Below are positions 24,972 through 32,000 of a stretch of DNA of 32,000 nucleotides, in pieces (within the stretch, counting starts at the first letter, position 1; each line of letters opens with the position of its first letter). Source of the DNA: Mycoplasma mycoides subsp. capri (GTDB lineage: Bacteria > Bacillota_I > Bacilli_A > Mycoplasmatales > Mycoplasmataceae); assembly GCF_018389705.1 (NCBI RefSeq), contig NZ_CP065581.1, positions 630,001 to 662,000 of the forward strand, in the 5' to 3' direction. The notes beneath the pieces were generated by a model, which was not told where the DNA came from, did no database searches, and was given only the letters and a program-made list of their open reading frames with translations. Both the position numbers and the translations under genes were made by a program.

Positions 24972-26471
24972 TTATTCTCTAATTAATCTAGTAATCATTT
25001 TTGATTGAATATCTGATTTAGCTAAACTTGTCATTTTTAATTTAATTTGTTTTAAATCCATATATTCAGCAATAATATAGTTTGCAGTTCATATAAATGT
25101 TGTTAGATAAATTCCTAATAAACAAAAAATTAATATACAGCAAATATAATAAACTTCAGTAATTTTTTTAATAAATAAATAGTTTTTATCTAAATCAGTA
25201 TTATTAATTACTTCAAATACTGATTTAAATATACTAAATAAACCAATATTATTAACTTTACAAATACTAATTACTAAATATCAAACTGATAAAGTTAAAA
25301 ATGTAACTGTTAAAAAAGTAGATAAAACAGAAACTTTAGTACTTCTATAATCTCACATTAAAGCAATGCCAAATCATAAATAAAACATTACAAAGAAAAA
25401 TAAACCAAACACTCACATCATTATTGTTAGTAAATAAATATTATGAATAAAAGTAATTAGAATTACTCCAAACATCGTTAGACTAGTTAGAATAGAAATT
25501 GATTTAACAATTCCAATCACTTTAATAACTAGTTTATAAAATAAATAACCTAATAATAATTGTCCTAAAACAAAACTTAATCTAAATGATTGTAAGTAAT
25601 TTCAGACATTTAAATTAGTATATGATTGTTGTTTTAATTTACTTACTAAAAATAGTTCAAAAATATCTGATTTAATAATTACATTAACACTTGTAATTAA
25701 AAAACTCATCACAATTAAACCAATTAAAACTTTATAATCATATCTTTGTAATTGTTCAACTATATCTTCTTTATATTTAATAACTTTGATTTTTCTTTCT
25801 TTTACAAATATAGAAACTACTAAACAAATAATTAAACAAACTAAACTTAAACTAAAAATTATTCAATTTGTATAACTATTATGATTAGAAATTAGATTTA
25901 AGTTTAATAAACTATAAACTTCATAACTAATAAAAGTTGCAAAACTTATAACAAATCCAGCTTTTATACTACTAAAAACTGGAAATAATCTTTCATTAAA
26001 CTGTTCATTAAAAAATAAAAAGTAAATAATTTGAGCTGAAATGCCTACTGCTAAAAATAAACTAATAAAAATAATACTTGTTATATTTACATTACTTAAA
26101 AAAGCAATCATTACACTTAAAAAACAGCTAAATAAACTAATTCAAATTCAAATTCTTCTACTTTGTAATTTTAAAGTTAGTCATAATGCAAATGGATTCA
26201 GAATCGTTGCGTATAAAAAATAACTACTTAAAAAAAGTAAAATAGTTAAAGTAGAACTTGAAAATGTTTTTAAAATTGGTGAATCAATATAATTTGTAAT
26301 TATTTGAATTAAAAAATTAATTACAATTCAAAAACTACTAATTTCTAAATAAAATAATCCTTTTTGTTTAGAAATGCTATTTTTATAAAATAAATAACTA
26401 GCAACAATTAATCAAATCACTATTAATAAAGGATTTATTATATATAAATCTCAACTAAACAACTTATTCAC
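24972..26471 (-). CDS. Polytopic membrane protein (about 10+ TM spans), probable GTG start
   Basis: Hand translation shows one continuous frame, open from the TAG at 26487 down to the TAA at 24972, with many TGA = Trp codons inside hydrophobic spans. No ATG lies near the 5' end; candidate starts are GTG at 26471 or 26474. The 5' boundary is uncertain. Confidence 0.55.
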
Positions 26472-26754
26472 CACTTCTCTAATTAACTATTTATATTATA
26501 AATAAAAGCATATAAATAAAAGTTAAAATTAGTTATAAAACTCAGTTTATAGTCATAAAATTTAGCTATTTGCTTTTAATTAATAATTATAGTTTAAAGT
26601 TTAGAAATTAAAATTCTAATTTAGATTTAATAACTATACAAAATGTAAAAAAGTTTTATTTAGAAGATTATTAAAAATGAAAATGAGTAAATAATAAATA
26701 ACCATTCTTAGTCAGATTACTTGAAATATTAAAATCAGTATGGTATGTTAATAA

Positions 26755-26775
26755 TATAAATATTTTATATTTATA
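26755..26775 (+). promoter_or_regulatory. Conserved 21-bp palindrome (promoter/operator), copy A
   Basis: TATAAATAT-TTT-ATATTTATA, with perfect 9-bp arms; contains TATAAA/TATATT -10-like hexamers. Confidence 0.6.
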
Positions 26776-26873
26776 CGTTGATTGCGAAGAAGGTTCACTG
26801 AACGAAGGCTTCCGGCGGTGAAGCCAGAAATAAATAGAACCAAAAATAGAACTCCTTTTAGGGTTCTTTTTTT
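26776..26873 (+). ncRNA. Candidate small RNA or leader, class 1, copy A (upstream of P1)
   Basis: G+C-rich body. Helix GGTTC (26792-26796) / GAACC (26837-26841) encloses hairpin GGCTTC-cggcggt-GAAGCC (26807-26825). Terminator AGAACTCC-tttt-AGGGTTCT plus T7 ends at 26873. The 5' end is inferred. Confidence 0.6.
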
Positions 26874-26926
26874 ATATATAATTAGTATCTAATTAGAAAG
26901 ATAAACTAAGATTTATTAGTAGTTTA

Positions 26927-27655
26927 ATGTTTGGTACAGTATTTAGATTTAGAAATTTAGATAATACATTACCAATAACAAGAGATAGATATTTTGAACC
27001 TATAGATACCAGTGGTAAAAAACTTCACCGTCCTTATGTTGTTTTTTATTCTGATGATAAGGTTTATTATTTATCTGTTAAAACATTAAAAAAAAAAGAA
27101 AATGAAGCTTCTGTTTATAGAAACCAAGATACTAATGTAATCTTATTAAATAAAACTGTTTATTATGAACCAGTTAAAGGTGAAGCTCTTGGTAATGTAA
27201 TAGATTGTTCATCTGTAAATATAATGGATAGAAAATTATTTGAACAATTATTTGAAAAAGACAGTTTTAAAAATAATTACCAACTAGCTCCTTGAATTTA
27301 TGATCAAGTAATGAACAAACTTTATGAAAATAAAAATAATTTAGTCTTCCATGAAGTAACTGGTTTTAATGACAACAAGGTTGAATGAATGATTGATAAA
27401 ACAAAAACTGAGCAGGGTCGTTTAGAGTATGAAAAATGACGAACAAGAGTTGAAAAAGTAATCACAACTGTAATAGAAATTTATCATTCAATTTCAAGAG
27501 ATGATATAGAAAAAAGATTAAACAATCAAGAAGAATACGTTAAATTTATTAGTCCAATCTATTATGATGAATTAGAATACGTTTATAAATCTTTTGAAAT
27601 AGATGATAAATGAGAAGAATATCAAAAAAGTAATTCTAATAAGCATAAGATGTAA
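26927..27655 (+). CDS. P1: PemK/MazF/ToxN-like N-terminal domain protein with a helical C-terminal domain (candidate toxin)
   Basis: Track ORF 26927-27295 extended across 4 TGA codons (every codon hand-translated) to the TAA at 27653; 242 aa. Motifs GTVFRF, HRPYVVFYSDDKVYYLSVKT and GNVIDCSSVNIMDRKLF. Confidence 0.8.
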
Positions 27656-27796
27656 TTAAGATTATAGGGGTTCTTTTTTTTATACTTATTGGGTATCGCT
27701 TCCTAATATATACTAAGTAAATGTAAAATATAAATATATAAAATAGTTTGCTTGCTATTAATTACAACATCAAAAATTATTATGATATAGTTAAAG

Positions 27797-27817
27797 TATA
27801 AATATTTTATATTTATA
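27797..27817 (+). promoter_or_regulatory. Conserved 21-bp palindrome, copy B
   Basis: Identical TATAAATATTTTATATTTATA. Confidence 0.6.
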
Positions 27818-27916
27818 AGATTGGTGGTTGTAGTTCTTCCGGCCCTGTCTACCATTTGAGATGACGAAATTGAGAATAGAACTAAGTTAGAACTCTCTTA
27901 AAGGAGTTCTTTTTTT
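27818..27916 (+). ncRNA. Candidate small RNA or leader, class 2, copy B (upstream of P2)
   Basis: TGGTGG / CTACCA helix. AGTTCT (27832-27837) is complementary to two AGAACT copies (27878-27883 and 27889-27894). Terminator AGAACTC-tcttaaag-GAGTTCT plus T7 ends at 27916. Confidence 0.6.
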
Positions 27917-27958
27917 ATATAATTTAGTTATATATCTTAAAAAAATAGTAGGTATCAA

Positions 27959-28897
27959 ATGGGTATAGAAGCAGGTAAAATCTATAAAAATCGAAACCAA
28001 GAATATAATTTTTTTATAGCAAAAGATAAAGATGATGAAGTAATTAAAGGTCATGGTATAAATAGACCATTTATTATATTTTATAGTGATGATAAAGTTT
28101 ATTACTTATCTGCTAAAAGTATTAGTAAAAAGAATAGAAAAAAAACTTTAGCTGATAAGTTTAATGTTGTTTTTAAAACAGATCTATATGGAGAAGATAA
28201 AGAAGTAGCTATAAATTGTTCAGTTATAAATATAATGGATAGAAAATTATTTGAAAGTTTATATGTTAAAGATGATGATATGAACAATTTTCAAACTACT
28301 CCATGACACTATGATAAGATAATGGGAACTTTATATAGATATTTTGATGAAATAACATATGCTGAAGCTTCACATATTGATAATGATACGCAACAATTAG
28401 TGTGAAAATCTACTTTAGAATCTAAATTAAATAAATTAGATTGTTTAAAAGTAATCAAAGGGTATAACTATCTTTTATTTGAAAGTGATATATCAAGAAA
28501 AGAGTTGCTAGATAATCCTGATAAATTTTTTAGTTTAGTTACAAGCTTTTATGAAAGAGTTAAATTTGAAACTCAAGAAGATTTTGATGAATATGTTATT
28601 ACACACCAAGAAATGGAATCTATCAAATATGAAGTGCACATTAAAAATGCAATTAAAGAACTAAAACAAAATCTAGAAAAAGAAAAAGAACAACATAAAC
28701 TATTAGAACAAGAGATAGATGTTGTTAAAAAACTAAATTATAAAAATAGTAAAATACAAGAGATGAACCAAGAGCTTAAAGATTGAGAAGAATTAGTTGA
28801 AATATCATCACATAAAACAAATAAAACTAATTCTGATAAAAAAACTGATGAACCAGATAAACCTAAGCAAAATCAATCTAGCAAGCTTAAAATGTAA
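27959..28897 (+). CDS. P2: divergent paralog of P1/P3 (candidate toxin) with a longer Glu/Lys-rich C-terminus
   Basis: Track ORFs 27959-28306 and 28505-28786 are in frame; the junction was hand-translated across TGAs. 312 aa; TAA at 28895. Motifs GKIYK, NRPFIIFYSDDKVYYLSAKS and AINCSVINIMDRKLF. Confidence 0.8.
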
Positions 28898-28952
28898 TTA
28901 AAACTATAATATCTTACTATATATTAAGTAAGTAATAAAGATATAATAAAGA

Positions 28953-28973
28953 TATAAATATTTTATATTTATA
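28953..28973 (+). promoter_or_regulatory. Conserved 21-bp palindrome, copy C
   Basis: Identical TATAAATATTTTATATTTATA. Confidence 0.6.
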
Positions 28974-29070
28974 GGTTGAGCGGTAGCAAGTTCATCTAAA
29001 CCGTGACTTCCGGCGGTGAAGTCTAAATAATTTGAACTAAAAATAGAACTCCTTTTAGGGGTTATTTTTT
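28974..29070 (+). ncRNA. Candidate small RNA, class 1, copy C (orphan, in tandem with D)
   Basis: AGTTCA (28989-28994) / TGAACT (29033-29038). Hairpin GACTTC-cggcggt-GAAGTC (29005-29023). The terminator 3' arm is weakened (GGGGTTA) and followed by T6. Confidence 0.55.
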
Positions 29071-29188
29071 ATACTTAATATATACTAAGTAAGTATAAAA
29101 TATATTATAAAATATGAACTTTATGCATATTAAATAATTTATTTTGATGTTATTTTCAAATACAAAAATTAATATGATATAGTTAAAG

Positions 29189-29209
29189 TATAAATATTTT
29201 ATATTTATA
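29189..29209 (+). promoter_or_regulatory. Conserved 21-bp palindrome, copy D
   Basis: Identical TATAAATATTTTATATTTATA. Confidence 0.6.
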
Positions 29210-29307
29210 CATTGAGCGGCAGTGGGTTCATCTGGTCATGGCGTCCGGAAGTGATGCCGAAAATAATTGAACTAAAAATAGAACTCCTTTTAGGGGGTTC
29301 TTTTTTT
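29210..29307 (+). ncRNA. Candidate small RNA or leader, class 1, copy D (upstream of P3)
   Basis: GGTTCA (29225-29230) / TGAACT (29268-29273). Hairpin GGCGTC-cggaagt-GATGCC (29240-29258). Terminator AGAACTCC-tttta-GGGGGTTCT plus T7. Confidence 0.6.
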
Positions 29308-29345
29308 GTATAATCAATATGTAATAGAAAGATAAACTAAGATTT

Positions 29346-30092
29346 ATGAATAGTGGAATGTACGGTAAAGTGTTTAGATTTAGAAATTTAGATAATACAT
29401 TACCAATAGCAAGAGATAGTCTTTTTAAAAATATACCAACTGATAATAGTAAACTTCACCGTCCTTATGTTGTTTTTTATTCTGATGATAAAGTTTATTT
29501 TTTAAATGTTAAAACACTAAAAGAAAAAAATAAAAATAATGTTGATAAGTACATAGATACTAATGTAATCTTATTAAATAAAACTATTTATAATCAACCA
29601 ATTAAAGGTGAAGCTCTGGGTAATGTAATAGATTGTTCAGTCGTAAATATAATGAATAGAAAATTATTTGAACAACTTTACCAAGAAGATGAGTATTATA
29701 ATAACTATCAATTAGCTCCTTGAATTTATGATCAAGTAATGAATAAACTTTATGAGAATAAAGATAATTTGATAGTTCATCAACTCAAAGCTTTTGATTT
29801 TGAAAATAATAAAACTCTTTGATATGAAACTACAAAATCTAATGACAAGCAAAATTCAACTGATAACAATAAGTGATTAGCTAGAGCTAAAAAAGTAATC
29901 ACAACTGTAATAGAAACTTATCATTCAATTTCAAGAGATGAAATAGAAAAAAGATTAAATAATCAAGAAGAATACATTAAATACATTAGTCCAATCTATT
30001 ATAACGAATTAGAATACGTTTATAATTCTTTTGAAATAGATGATAAATGAGAAGAATATCAAAAAAGTAATTCTAATAAACATAAGATGTAA
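29346..30092 (+). CDS. P3: close paralog of P1 (candidate toxin)
   Basis: Track ORF 29346-29723 extended across TGAs to the TAA at 30090; 248 aa. The C-terminal 70 aa are nearly identical to P1 (KVITTVIE.YHSISRD.IEKRLNNQEEY...DDKWEEYQKSNSNKHKM). An alternative start is the ATG at 29358. Confidence 0.8.
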
Positions 30093-30094
30093 TT

Positions 30095-30119
30095 AAGACT
30101 ATAATATAGTCTTTTTTTT
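30095..30119 (+). terminator. Rho-independent terminator of P3
   Basis: AAGACTATA-a-TATAGTCTT followed by a T-run. Confidence 0.7.
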
Positions 30120-30234
30120 ATACTTAATATATACTAAGTAAGTATAAAATATTATAAACATATAAACTTTATGCATATTAAATAATTATTTTGATATTAA
30201 TTGCAATACCAAAATTATTATGATATATTTAAAG

Positions 30235-30255
30235 TATAAATATTTTATATTTATA
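30235..30255 (+). promoter_or_regulatory. Conserved 21-bp palindrome, copy E
   Basis: Identical TATAAATATTTTATATTTATA. Confidence 0.6.
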
Positions 30256-30353
30256 CGTTGAGTGGCAGTGAGTTCATCTGGTCATGGCGGACGATTGGTG
30301 AAGCCGAAAATAATTGAACTAAAAATAGAACTCCTTTTAGGGGTTCTTTTTTT
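30256..30353 (+). ncRNA. Candidate small RNA, class 1, copy E (orphan, inner hairpin disrupted)
   Basis: Same outer GTTCA/TGAAC and terminator as copy D. The inner hairpin 5' arm reads GGCGGAC against the 3' arm GAAGCC, so only GGC/GCC can pair. Confidence 0.5.
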
Positions 30354-30468
30354 ATACTTAATATATACTAAGTAAATATAAAATATAAGAATAATATAAA
30401 CTTTATACATATTAAATAGTTTTCTTGCTATTAGTTGCAATACCAAAATTATTATGATATAGTTAAAC

Positions 30469-30489
30469 TATAAATATTTTATATTTATG
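30469..30489 (+). promoter_or_regulatory. Conserved palindrome, copy F (last base differs)
   Basis: TATAAATATTTTATATTTATg. Confidence 0.55.
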
Positions 30490-30588
30490 ATATCGGTGGT
30501 TATAGTTCTTCCGGCCATGTCTACCATTTGAGATGACGAAATTGAGAATAGAACTAAGTTAGAACTCTCTTAGAAGAGTTCTTTTTTT
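30490..30588 (+). ncRNA. Candidate small RNA, class 2, copy F (orphan)
   Basis: Near-identical to copy B (GGTGG/CTACC, AGTTCT, two AGAACT). Terminator AGAACTCT-cttaga-AGAGTTCT plus T7. Confidence 0.55.
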
Positions 30589-30701
30589 ATACTTAATATA
30601 TACTAAGTAAATATAAAATATATTAGAACGTATAAACTTTGTATATGTATTAAGTATTTTTTTATTTTTGCAAGTCCAGAATTAATATGATATAGTTAAA
30701 G

Positions 30702-30722
30702 TATAAATATTTTATATTTATA
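30702..30722 (+). promoter_or_regulatory. Conserved 21-bp palindrome, copy G
   Basis: Identical TATAAATATTTTATATTTATA. Confidence 0.6.
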
Positions 30723-30820
30723 AGTTGAGCGGTAGCAAGTTCATCTAAACCGTGACTTCCGGCGGTGAAGTCTAAATAATTTGAACTAAAAATAGAACTC
30801 CTTTTGAGAGTTCTTTTTTT
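30723..30820 (+). ncRNA. Candidate small RNA, class 1, copy G (orphan; 114 nt upstream of the DUF285 gene)
   Basis: Body identical to copy C. Terminator 3' arm changed to GAGAGTTCT (AGAACTC/GAGTTCT pairing), followed by T7. Confidence 0.55.
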
Positions 30821-30934
30821 ATACTTAATACGTACTAACTAACTTTAAAATATATTAGAAAAATTAAATTTTATCTATATTAAATAGTTTGCTTGTTATT
30901 TATTTAAAATAATATTAAAAATAAATTAAAGATT

Positions 30935-31462
30935 ATGATGAATAAAATTATAAAACAACCAGTTTATAATACTAATCAAACTGAATGCTTAGAAATTGGA
31001 TATGAATGATATGATAATCAAATATCAATTATTCCATTTCCTCATACTATTAAAAAAGTTCCAAGAGTTTTACCAACTCAAATTACTAGTTTAGAAAATG
31101 CCTTTATTTATAATCAAAATGAATTTATTGATGGAATAGAGTACTGAGATACATCAAATATAACTAATATGTATTCTATGTTTTATGAAGCTAATAATTT
31201 TAATCAAAATATTAGCATGTGAGATGTAAGTAATGTTGTTGATATGAGTTATATGTTTTGTTGAGCTTATAAATTTAATCAAGACATTTCAAATTGAAAT
31301 GTAAGTAATGTTAAATATATGAATGATATGTTTTATTGTGCTAATAATTTTAATCAAAATATTTCTAAATGAAATGTAAGTAATGTAAAAAAGGATTATC
31401 AAAATATTGGTAGTGGTGGGTTTAATTGAAAAGATGAGTTTAAACCTAAGTTTAATAAATAG
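30935..31462 (+). CDS. DUF285-type (BspA-like leucine-rich repeat) protein
   Basis: Fully hand-translated: 175 aa with 7 TGA = Trp codons. Repeats of the form MF..A..FNQ.IS.W[DN]VSNV are characteristic of the Mollicutes DUF285 family. TAG at 31460. Confidence 0.8.
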
Positions 31463-31630: not shown

Positions 31631-32000
31631 ATGAAAAAACTATTATTTATACTTCCAATAACTTTAATACCACTATTAACTATTACTAGTTGTTCAACTA
31701 ATTTTCAATTACCAGAATCTAATAAAAAATATGATAAAAATAATATTAAAAAAGAAATAAAGAATTTTACTTATAATGGTATTACATATAACTTAATTAA
31801 AGAAGATAATATTGATCCAGAAAATGTTTATTATGCTAATGAAGTATTAGAAAATGACGCAAAACAATTTAAATCATATATTCCTGATTATAAAAAATAC
31901 TTTTATAACCAAGTAGATAATAAACTAAAACTTGCCACTCCTGATTTAGGCGCATCTTGATTTGATTTTCCAACTATTGCTAAACTTAGTCAATTTGTCA
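31631..32000 (+). CDS. Lipoprotein (3' end outside the window)
   Basis: MKKLLFILPITLIPLLTITSC lipobox. The track stop at 31958 is TGA, so the frame runs off the window. Confidence 0.7.

Follow-up and report, generated by a model that had tools for sequence, protein, structure and literature searches.

In a 32,000-nucleotide (nt) stretch of Mycoplasma mycoides subsp. capri (NZ_CP065581.1, positions 630,001 to 662,000; called the window below, with a G+C content of ~22%), three related protein genes, P1, P2 and P3, lie among copies of a small RNA (sRNA). What do these proteins do, and why does an RNA precede each of them? The initial annotation placed their N-terminal domains with the PemK/MazF/ToxN toxins and took the upstream partner to be an RNA and not a MazE-like protein. 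Under the standard bacterial code the open reading frames (ORFs) in 26927–30092 halt at in-frame TGA; with TGA read as tryptophan (code 4, Mollicutes) there are three complete genes on the + strand. An RNA unit, either Rfam MCS4 or a diverged one, does precede every family member examined, and no ORF of at least 40 amino acids (aa) adjoining the P genes is a candidate protein antitoxin; the only spacer ORFs of that length run antisense to the RNA modules. On both counts the proposed partner is confirmed. With a probability of about 45%, we read each P gene and the sRNA gene upstream of it as a type III-like toxin–antitoxin (TA) module, in which the antitoxin would be an independently transcribed sRNA and not an array of short repeats. 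This reading fits best because it accommodates the RNA–terminator–protein layout, the lack of a protein antitoxin, the co-variation of RNA and protein, the carriage on mobile elements, the orphan RNAs, a decayed gene and fold neighbors that are RNA-neutralized RNases.

The association of gene and RNA is held with high confidence. MCS4 is a small stable RNA of Mycoplasma capricolum, noted for its resemblance to U6 small nuclear RNA. Seven matches to Rfam MCS4 (RF02713) lie on the + strand in 26755–30821, and one of them ends 37–52 nt before each P start codon. The units starting at 27797, 30235 and 30469 score above the Rfam gathering threshold of 56 bits; the other four (35–52 bits) are full-length and show the same architecture. 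Across about 10 Mollicutes species, an upstream RNA unit is present in 23 of 23 gene copies with a visible 5′ end, including one truncated copy of 55 aa. These copies come from M. mycoides (two further chromosomal sites), ICEs (integrative and conjugative elements) of M. bovis and M. agalactiae, Metamycoplasma auris, M. yeatsii, Mycoplasma sp. HU2014, M. spumans, M. anseris and a metagenomic ICE. Rfam or a covariance model built here (R1) detected 16 of the 23 units, and the remaining seven diverged RNAs were recognized by eye. Upstream regions that Rfam misses contain a TATAAT box, ~60–110 nt of relatively GC-rich sequence and a terminator; among the diverged units a scan confirmed the terminator in six of seven (loci L007, L009, L011, L015 and L016), that of L022 being ambiguous. 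Model R1 recovered the RNA of locus L013 and gave no match to the RNA classes of L007, L011, L015, L016 and L022. Each locus has at least as many RNA copies as gene copies, every gene has an RNA, and orphan RNAs are common. M. bovis ICEs carry one or two RNA units per gene, M. agalactiae three in tandem and the second M. mycoides locus two, and the same RNA–gene arrangement recurs in M. auris, M. yeatsii and Mycoplasma sp. HU2014.

The RNA has a conserved core fold. In the alignment 95% of cells pair and 9 of 12 pairs show compensatory changes, which none of 500 shuffles reaches (slid controls, 28–47%), with the caveat that the alignment was fitted to the structure model and so favors structure somewhat. 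The structure was specified by hand and combined with covariance model R1 in place of RNAalifold, which on a MAFFT alignment returned 3 pairs only, with register shifts, and was dropped. A GGCAG/CUGCC pairing was also discarded, as it is not conserved in type B or M. auris copies. The scan found nine intrinsic terminators where 0.5 would be expected, each unit having one at its 3′ end, and TG-extended −10 promoters just upstream of five of the seven units. Four window units have no following gene, and three of these form an array that mixes the two RNA sub-types, A and B (Table 1).

These features bear on whether the RNA is a separate transcript at all. The structured RNA could be the 5′ leader of the P mRNA and its terminator an attenuator under regulation, perhaps by the protein itself; the abundant 'sRNA' would then be no more than a terminated leader, and the function of the protein would have nothing to do with RNA neutralization. 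A promoter, a structured RNA, an intrinsic terminator and an ORF that share a strand at 20–55 nt spacing are the classic layout for such a leader. However, full promoter–terminator units without a downstream gene are numerous, accounting for four of seven units in the window and for tandem arrays in M. agalactiae, M. bovis and M. mycoides. A TATAAT box also follows the terminator T-run directly (L001 7975–8003; L015 2965–2998; L016 2960–2995; window 26868–26926) and in several Hominis-group loci stands only 6–10 nt before the ATG, the spacer being longer in P1 and P3 (37–52 nt). The position of this box right after the T-run suggests that the protein gene may have its own promoter and a leaderless mRNA, with terminator read-through as the alternative. 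No alternative antiterminator pairing was identified, though none was systematically sought. Taken together, we consider an attenuator quite unlikely.

RNA type often tracks protein type. The N-terminal domains of P1 and P3 are 68% identical and those of P1 and P2 38%, making the three genes clear paralogs. The P2 domain shares 59% identity with the M. bovis ICE protein and 71% with an M. putrefaciens protein, compared with 35–38% for its neighbors P1 and P3. Its RNA behaves in the same way, with 82% identity to the M. bovis RNA versus 45–59% to the type B RNAs of the same window. In Metamycoplasma auris (L009 1733–4581), three modules stand in tandem with RNA classes that are L011-like, MCS4 type A and a third, unclassified one; the first protein gene breaks off just past the YVYYL motif and encodes only 55 aa. 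The locus looks like a set of co-resident orthogonal modules, one of them decaying.

The sRNA might instead act on the P mRNA, as in type I systems, pairing with it and blocking translation or triggering decay. The P2 RNA loop UACCAUUUGA (27832–27841) is complementary to UCAAAUGG (27952–27964), which spans the P2 start codon, and the duplexes with the cognate RNA reach z = −4.9 (P2) and z = −2.6 (P3). Both outliers stem from AU-rich stretches that mononucleotide shuffling destroys, and among 13 cognate pairs, whose z-scores range from +1.4 to −4.9, 10 fall in the interval from −1.2 to +1.4. Such complementarity is missing from the M. bovis pair, so that of UACCAUUUGA and UCAAAUGG is probably due to chance. 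Moreover, the P proteins are unlike the small hydrophobic peptides of type I toxins. With no consistent complementarity across the 13 pairs, antisense pairing was rejected, and we give type I-like control hardly any weight.

P1, P2 and P3 belong to NCBIfam family NF045891, 'Mbov_0400 family ICE element protein', with scores of 122.1, 111.9 and 112.5 bits (E 2e-35 to 3e-32; curated cutoff 55 bits). This family is very small and confined to Mollicutes, and its name carries no assigned function. P1 is 100% identical to Mycoplasma mycoides protein P0001, and P3 is identical to P0006. An exhaustive hidden Markov model (HMM) search of 1.84 billion representative proteins recovered just 35 relatives, and with so few representatives no sequences bridging to known toxins were found. 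Members occur in the Spiroplasma group (M. mycoides, M. feriruminatoris, M. putrefaciens, M. yeatsii and Mycoplasma sp. HU2014) and in the Hominis group (M. bovis, M. agalactiae, M. primatum, Metamycoplasma alkalescens, M. auris, M. spumans and M. anseris); plasmid and phage collections hold no homologs.

The toxin assignment in the initial annotation rested on three shared N-terminal elements. They are real and present as family-wide blocks, although two of the patterns were slightly wrong when checked as regular expressions. G[TK][VI][FY] occurs in all three proteins, as does PW.YD.[VI]M..LY. The RP element [HN]RP[YF][VI][VI]FYSDDKVYYLS[VA]K is exact in P1 and P2, while P3 has ...KVYFLNVK. 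The third, [VI][IN]CS.[VI]NIM[DN]RKLF[EQ][QS]L, fits only P2 as written; P1 and P3 have IDCS, and the class should be [DN]. The proposed domain of ~115 aa is too short. The conserved domain reaches about residue 155 (NF045891 match, residues 5–156), and the PW.YD helix, previously set apart as a separate, unassigned domain, lies inside this unit; the shorter boundary is an artefact, because the reading ended at the first in-frame TGA. Within the family alignments I17, V46, L49, M100 and F105 are invariant, and G3, R9, P36, K52, N59, N70, Y79, N98, L108 and N116 nearly so. R35 and [ST]53 are kept in at least 90% of the family and, together with K52, are among its most conserved polar residues. 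Because the blocks are conserved across the whole family, the motifs do not arise by chance.

A first AlphaFold model used 12 sequences (pLDDT, the predicted score in the local distance difference test, 74.5), and a second one, of P1 residues 1–190 with 22 diverse sequences, reached pLDDT 91.7 and a predicted template modeling (TM) score of 0.89. Each was compared by Foldseek with 350,542 PDB chains and the top 50 matches were inspected. CptN (4rmo_A) ranks first for the first model (E 0.29, TM 0.46) and AbiQ (4glk) fifteenth, while for the second model ToxN of B. thuringiensis (4ato_A) ranks second (E 0.13) and ToxN of E. coli (7d8o_A) fourth (E 0.23, TM 0.41), the TM scores of these matches being 0.31–0.41. 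The structural comparison thus places type III toxins at the top, below the significance threshold, and finds no MazF, Kid or CcdB chain in the top 50 of either model. Given the prior hypothesis, it is very unlikely that type III toxins would take such ranks among the chains by chance, and in these models the structural signal for a type III toxin resemblance is weak but consistent. Plausibly, and in our judgment on somewhat better than even odds, the P domain would be a ToxN/CptN-like version of the MazF/CcdB superfold.

A number of results weigh against a type III-like module. Taken singly, the Foldseek matches in the PDB are insignificant (E 0.13–1.0, TM 0.22–0.46, root-mean-square deviation 7–11 Å), and the sole significant match in BFVD (E=5.1e-4, probability 1.00, 147 columns) is to a predicted viral structure, from a phage, with the unconfirmed annotation 'PemK-like protein'. 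Profile comparison, which had been proposed as a check, gave no support: in Pfam neither PemK_toxin (PF02452) nor ToxN_toxin (PF13958) matches P1–P3 or 22 diverse members at E≤10, a PADLOC scan of P1–P3 returned no match, NCBIfam, Pfam and PADLOC offer no toxin family for the P proteins at E≤10, and PDB sequence profile searches gave chance-level matches only. Alignment by hhalign is likewise non-significant with a 117-sequence ToxN/AbiQ profile (Prob 0.7%, P=0.083), with a 5-sequence ToxN profile (Prob 0.3%) and with a MazF profile (P=0.23, Prob 0.3%, best alignment 60 columns), the last made of five sequences, of which EndoA was verified. S50, which aligns near the Thr/Ser site of ToxN, is not conserved, and in the non-significant MazF alignment T53 falls one residue before Thr48. 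As to the RNA, minimum free energy (MFE) z-scores are unremarkable, and Tandem Repeats Finder (TRF) detects no 30–45-nt repeats inside the units, only the 234-nt-period array of whole transcription units. Known type III antitoxins are arrays of 34–45-nt repeats processed by the toxin, whereas here the RNA is a discrete sRNA of ~120 nt with its own promoter and terminator; Ushida and Muto (1993) reportedly described MCS4 as a full-length RNA of ~125 nt. The third module of L009, an M. bovis-type protein with a quite different RNA, means that the co-variation is not strict. Finally, a published survey of TA systems in M. mycoides capri omits the NF045891 family (PMC8562856).

The details of the alignments are nevertheless in line with the register proposed earlier, in which the motifs follow the order of MazF and ToxN. 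The EndoA and ToxN strings quoted in the initial annotation proved correct, the ToxN family consensus being RPYVGIVLEINGxKYLAPLTSPK, and both hhalign alignments adopt the RP-anchored register, although neither is significant. In the ToxN alignment R35, K52, T53 and K55 pair with Lys33, Thr52, Ser53 and Lys55, four of the five active-site residues of ToxN (Tyr29, Lys33, Thr52, Ser53 and Lys55; PMC5086642); K55 is not conserved in the family and Tyr29 has no counterpart. The RP-anchored register, the type III toxin ranks with both models and the one significant BFVD match together keep the toxin-fold idea from being refuted. At the level of sequence, membership of the P proteins in the PemK or ToxN families is not demonstrable. 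The earlier toxin-fold interpretation is partly supported.

It is highly improbable that the P proteins are genuine type II MazF/PemK toxins whose protein antitoxin has been lost or is hidden. Their motif order does resemble that of MazF, and the 60 aligned columns take the proposed register and place R35 on the catalytic Arg25, in an alignment that is not significant; in MazF the Arg of the RP motif (Arg25) and a Thr/Ser (Thr48) are catalytic (PMC7354611). The unconfirmed label of the BFVD match points the same way. Against this stand the missing PF02452 matches among the 22 members and the P value of that alignment, and in the Foldseek top 50 type III toxins are present and MazF, Kid and CcdB chains absent. 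The P domain (~155 aa) also carries extra helices and a β-hairpin compared with MazF of ~110 aa, and no MazE- or PemI-like ORF lies beside the P genes.

The genomic setting differs between members of the family. In ICEs of M. bovis and M. agalactiae and in one metagenomic ICE the family gene lies between conjugation genes and the UPF0236 DDE recombinase gene cds22, immediately upstream of the latter. Judged by position and size only (ncr36/22 and ≤0.65 kb; PMC6030558), it is probably the 'cds36' gene of the M. agalactiae ICE (ICEA). In ICEA cds36 belongs to a set of small genes that yielded no transposon insertion, and cds22 expression is reported as sporadic (PMC6030558). The window genes, in contrast to these ICE members, are outside any ICE and amid housekeeping genes, as are those at another M. 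mycoides locus (L019). Strains differ in copy number, with three P genes in the window versus one at the same site in strain L004.

The setting within ICEs raises the rather unlikely, though serious, alternative of a non-toxic pair. Here the P protein would be an RNA-binding partner, chaperone or processing factor of the MCS4-type sRNA, and the two would regulate ICE or host functions, possibly cds22 expression, without killing. FinO/FinP on F-like plasmids is a comparable RNA–protein regulator pair. Gene–RNA linkage and co-variation suit any obligate RNA–protein pair equally, and no significant homology to any toxin is found. Large conserved single-stranded loops and weak MFE stability would suit an sRNA that is bound by protein or pairs with targets, and the ICE module sits directly before a gene whose expression is sporadic (PMC6030558). 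What such a regulator leaves out of account is the existence of stand-alone, multi-copy, copy-number-variable modules far from ICE genes (window, L004 and L019). Orphan RNA arrays, truncated protein genes (L009) and co-resident specificity classes are typical of TA or defense modules; the best fold neighbors are toxins, and no conserved complementarity of the RNA to neighboring mRNA was found.

We hold the mechanism of the RNA–protein module with moderate confidence, at slightly less than even odds. Each P gene and the sRNA gene before it would constitute a two-part, type III-like module serving addiction or abortive infection. The P protein would be an endoribonuclease of the ToxN/CptN/MazF fold, with a candidate active site made up of R35, on the RP strand, together with K52 and T/S53, both at the end of the strand that follows. 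The ~120-nt MCS4-type sRNA, made from its own promoter and ended by its intrinsic terminator, would bind the P protein and keep it inactive. Expression of the P gene would be lower, through terminator read-through or from the −10 box right after the T-run. Extra RNA-only units would supply an excess of antitoxin and might protect against the same toxin arriving on an ICE. The module is found both on mycoplasma ICEs and as stand-alone chromosomal units of variable copy number, and on ICEs it may stabilize the element. RNase activity, toxicity and neutralization by the RNA are candidate functions in this scheme.

Table 1. Coordinates of the P genes and RNA units in the window
Feature	Position	Strand	Description
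sRNA unit, type B, upstream of P1	26755–26874	+	Rfam 35.2 bits, E=0.022, below gathering threshold; extended −10 promoter 26721–26749; terminator 26848–26867
P1	26927–27655	+	242 aa; NF045891 domain ~aa 5–156 (26939–27394); C-terminal tail helical, variable
sRNA unit, type A (M. bovis-like), upstream of P2	27797–27917	+	Rfam 66.1 bits; covariance model R1 76 bits; terminator 27889–27910
P2	27959–28897	+	312 aa; conserved domain aa 7–153; tail long, Lys/Glu-rich, helical
Orphan sRNA unit, type B, first of two before P3	28953–29072	+	Rfam 37.2 bits; terminator 29047–29063
sRNA unit, type B, upstream of P3	29189–29308	+	Rfam 52 bits; promoter 29155–29183; terminator 29280–29301
P3	29346–30092	+	248 aa; conserved domain aa 8–163; C-terminal third near-identical to P1
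Tandem array of promoter–sRNA–terminator units without protein gene	30113–30890	+	TRF period 234 nt, 3.3 copies
Array sRNA, type B	30235–30354	+	Rfam 58.6 bits; promoter 30201–30229; terminator 30327–30347
Array sRNA, type A	30469–30589	+	Rfam 58.3 bits; promoter 30435–30463; terminator 30561–30582
Array sRNA, type B	30702–30821	+	Rfam 42.7 bits; promoter 30668–30696; terminator 30794–30814

The locus shows several marks of recombination and decay. The C-terminal thirds of P1 and P3 (27434–27666 and 29871–30103) are 92% identical as DNA, while their N-terminal domains share only ~68% identity as protein, suggesting gene conversion or domain shuffling between these paralogs. P3 is also involved in direct repeats D4, D5 and D7, and ...K[HL]KM is the C-terminus common to all three P proteins. 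The stretch that follows each orphan terminator (TATACTTAATATATACTAAGTAAGTATAAAATAT) matches the one 3′ of the P-gene stop codons, which suggests that the RNA-only units are leftovers of recombinational gene deletion. Upstream of the locus, 40 nt at 26242–26281 have 75% identity to the promoter and 5′ end of a type A unit (repeat family D12) and may be the remnant of a further, degraded RNA unit. Just downstream of the cluster lie a DUF285-type gene (30935–31462), its Pfam assignment being taken from the corresponding gene of strain L004 at this site, and a second gene whose signal sequence resembles that of lipoproteins (31631–32000). With these neighbors, the P/RNA cluster occupies a variable stretch that has the conserved scpA/scpB side on one flank and surface-protein genes on the other. 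In every MCS4-type copy an A-rich tract (GAAAU or GAAAA) immediately follows the inner hairpin on its 3′ side (e.g. 27868–27873 and 29259–29264). It could be a pseudo-substrate site, by analogy with type III toxins, which cut A-rich sites, and with the A-stretch conserved in tenpI RNA (PMC12283969), though such a tract may carry no meaning in DNA rich in A and T.

Both families were already catalogued, and as far as we found their linkage is the new part. Literature on MCS4, Mbov_0400, cds36, type III TA in Mycoplasma and sRNAs with ICEs yielded no prior link of the RNA to the protein or to TA biology, and no description of MCS4 in connection with a downstream protein gene or with ICEs. We tentatively propose, at somewhat less than even odds, that MCS4-type sRNAs and Mbov_0400/cds36 proteins constitute an unrecognized Mollicutes class of RNA–protein TA systems, with a free-standing sRNA antitoxin, several orthogonal specificity classes, and RNA-only arrays acting as 'anti-addiction' immunity against ICE toxins. 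If so, a type III-like system with an RNA antitoxin would be described for the first time in Mollicutes, and the definition of type III would widen beyond short-repeat antitoxins. It would also give a function to two orphans, namely MCS4, a 'U6-like' abundant RNA unexplained since 1993, and a conserved ICE gene. As a stabilization or defense module of mycoplasma ICEs, it would bear on the stability and spread of these elements in ruminant pathogens. The presence of the family in M. mycoides capri would make it relevant to minimal-cell engineering, and kill switches could be built from orthogonal RNA/protein pairs. An M. capricolum expression system has already been applied to other mycoplasma TA systems (PMC8562856).

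Compared with known systems, the window units have the same 5′ hairpin, outer stem, inner hairpin and terminator as Rfam MCS4. They differ from it in forming two sub-types, and at least three further RNA classes elsewhere escape the Rfam model. MazF-type and type III toxins share a fold superfamily (PMC5086642). The P proteins have in common with MazF/PemK/Kid (PF02452) the motif order of a G-x-[IV]-[YFW] strand, an RP strand, ...[ST]..., then a strand with D-[KR]-x-[LF] at its end, and next a helix. They differ from these toxins in having no HMM match (hhalign P=0.23), no Foldseek top match and no MazE/PemI gene, and in a domain that is ~45 residues longer. The comparison with type III systems (ToxIN, AbiQ/antiQ, CptIN and TenpIN) also includes differences. 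The units multiplied here are whole transcription units of 169–236 nt, and the P family, at 212–312 aa versus 155–190 aa, has an extra β-hairpin and a long, variable helical tail. The operational definition of a type III locus places a Rho-independent terminator between the RNA and the toxin gene and a tandem short-repeat array, the antitoxin, upstream (PMC5086642); a terminator lies before each P gene, and likewise in other species. As in type III systems, RNA gene, intrinsic terminator and protein gene follow each other on a single strand, a protein antitoxin is absent, the types of RNA and protein co-vary, and carriage is on both mobile elements and chromosomes. The nearest solved folds are those of CptN, ToxN and AbiQ (ranks 1, 2, 4 and 15 with the two models, below threshold). 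With an RP(Y) strand and, after it, a Y-x-L-[ST]-x-K strand, the P proteins are similar to the ToxN consensus RPYVG...YLAPLTSPK, and the MCS4-type RNA, like type III antitoxins, has a conserved A-rich tract (GAAAU).

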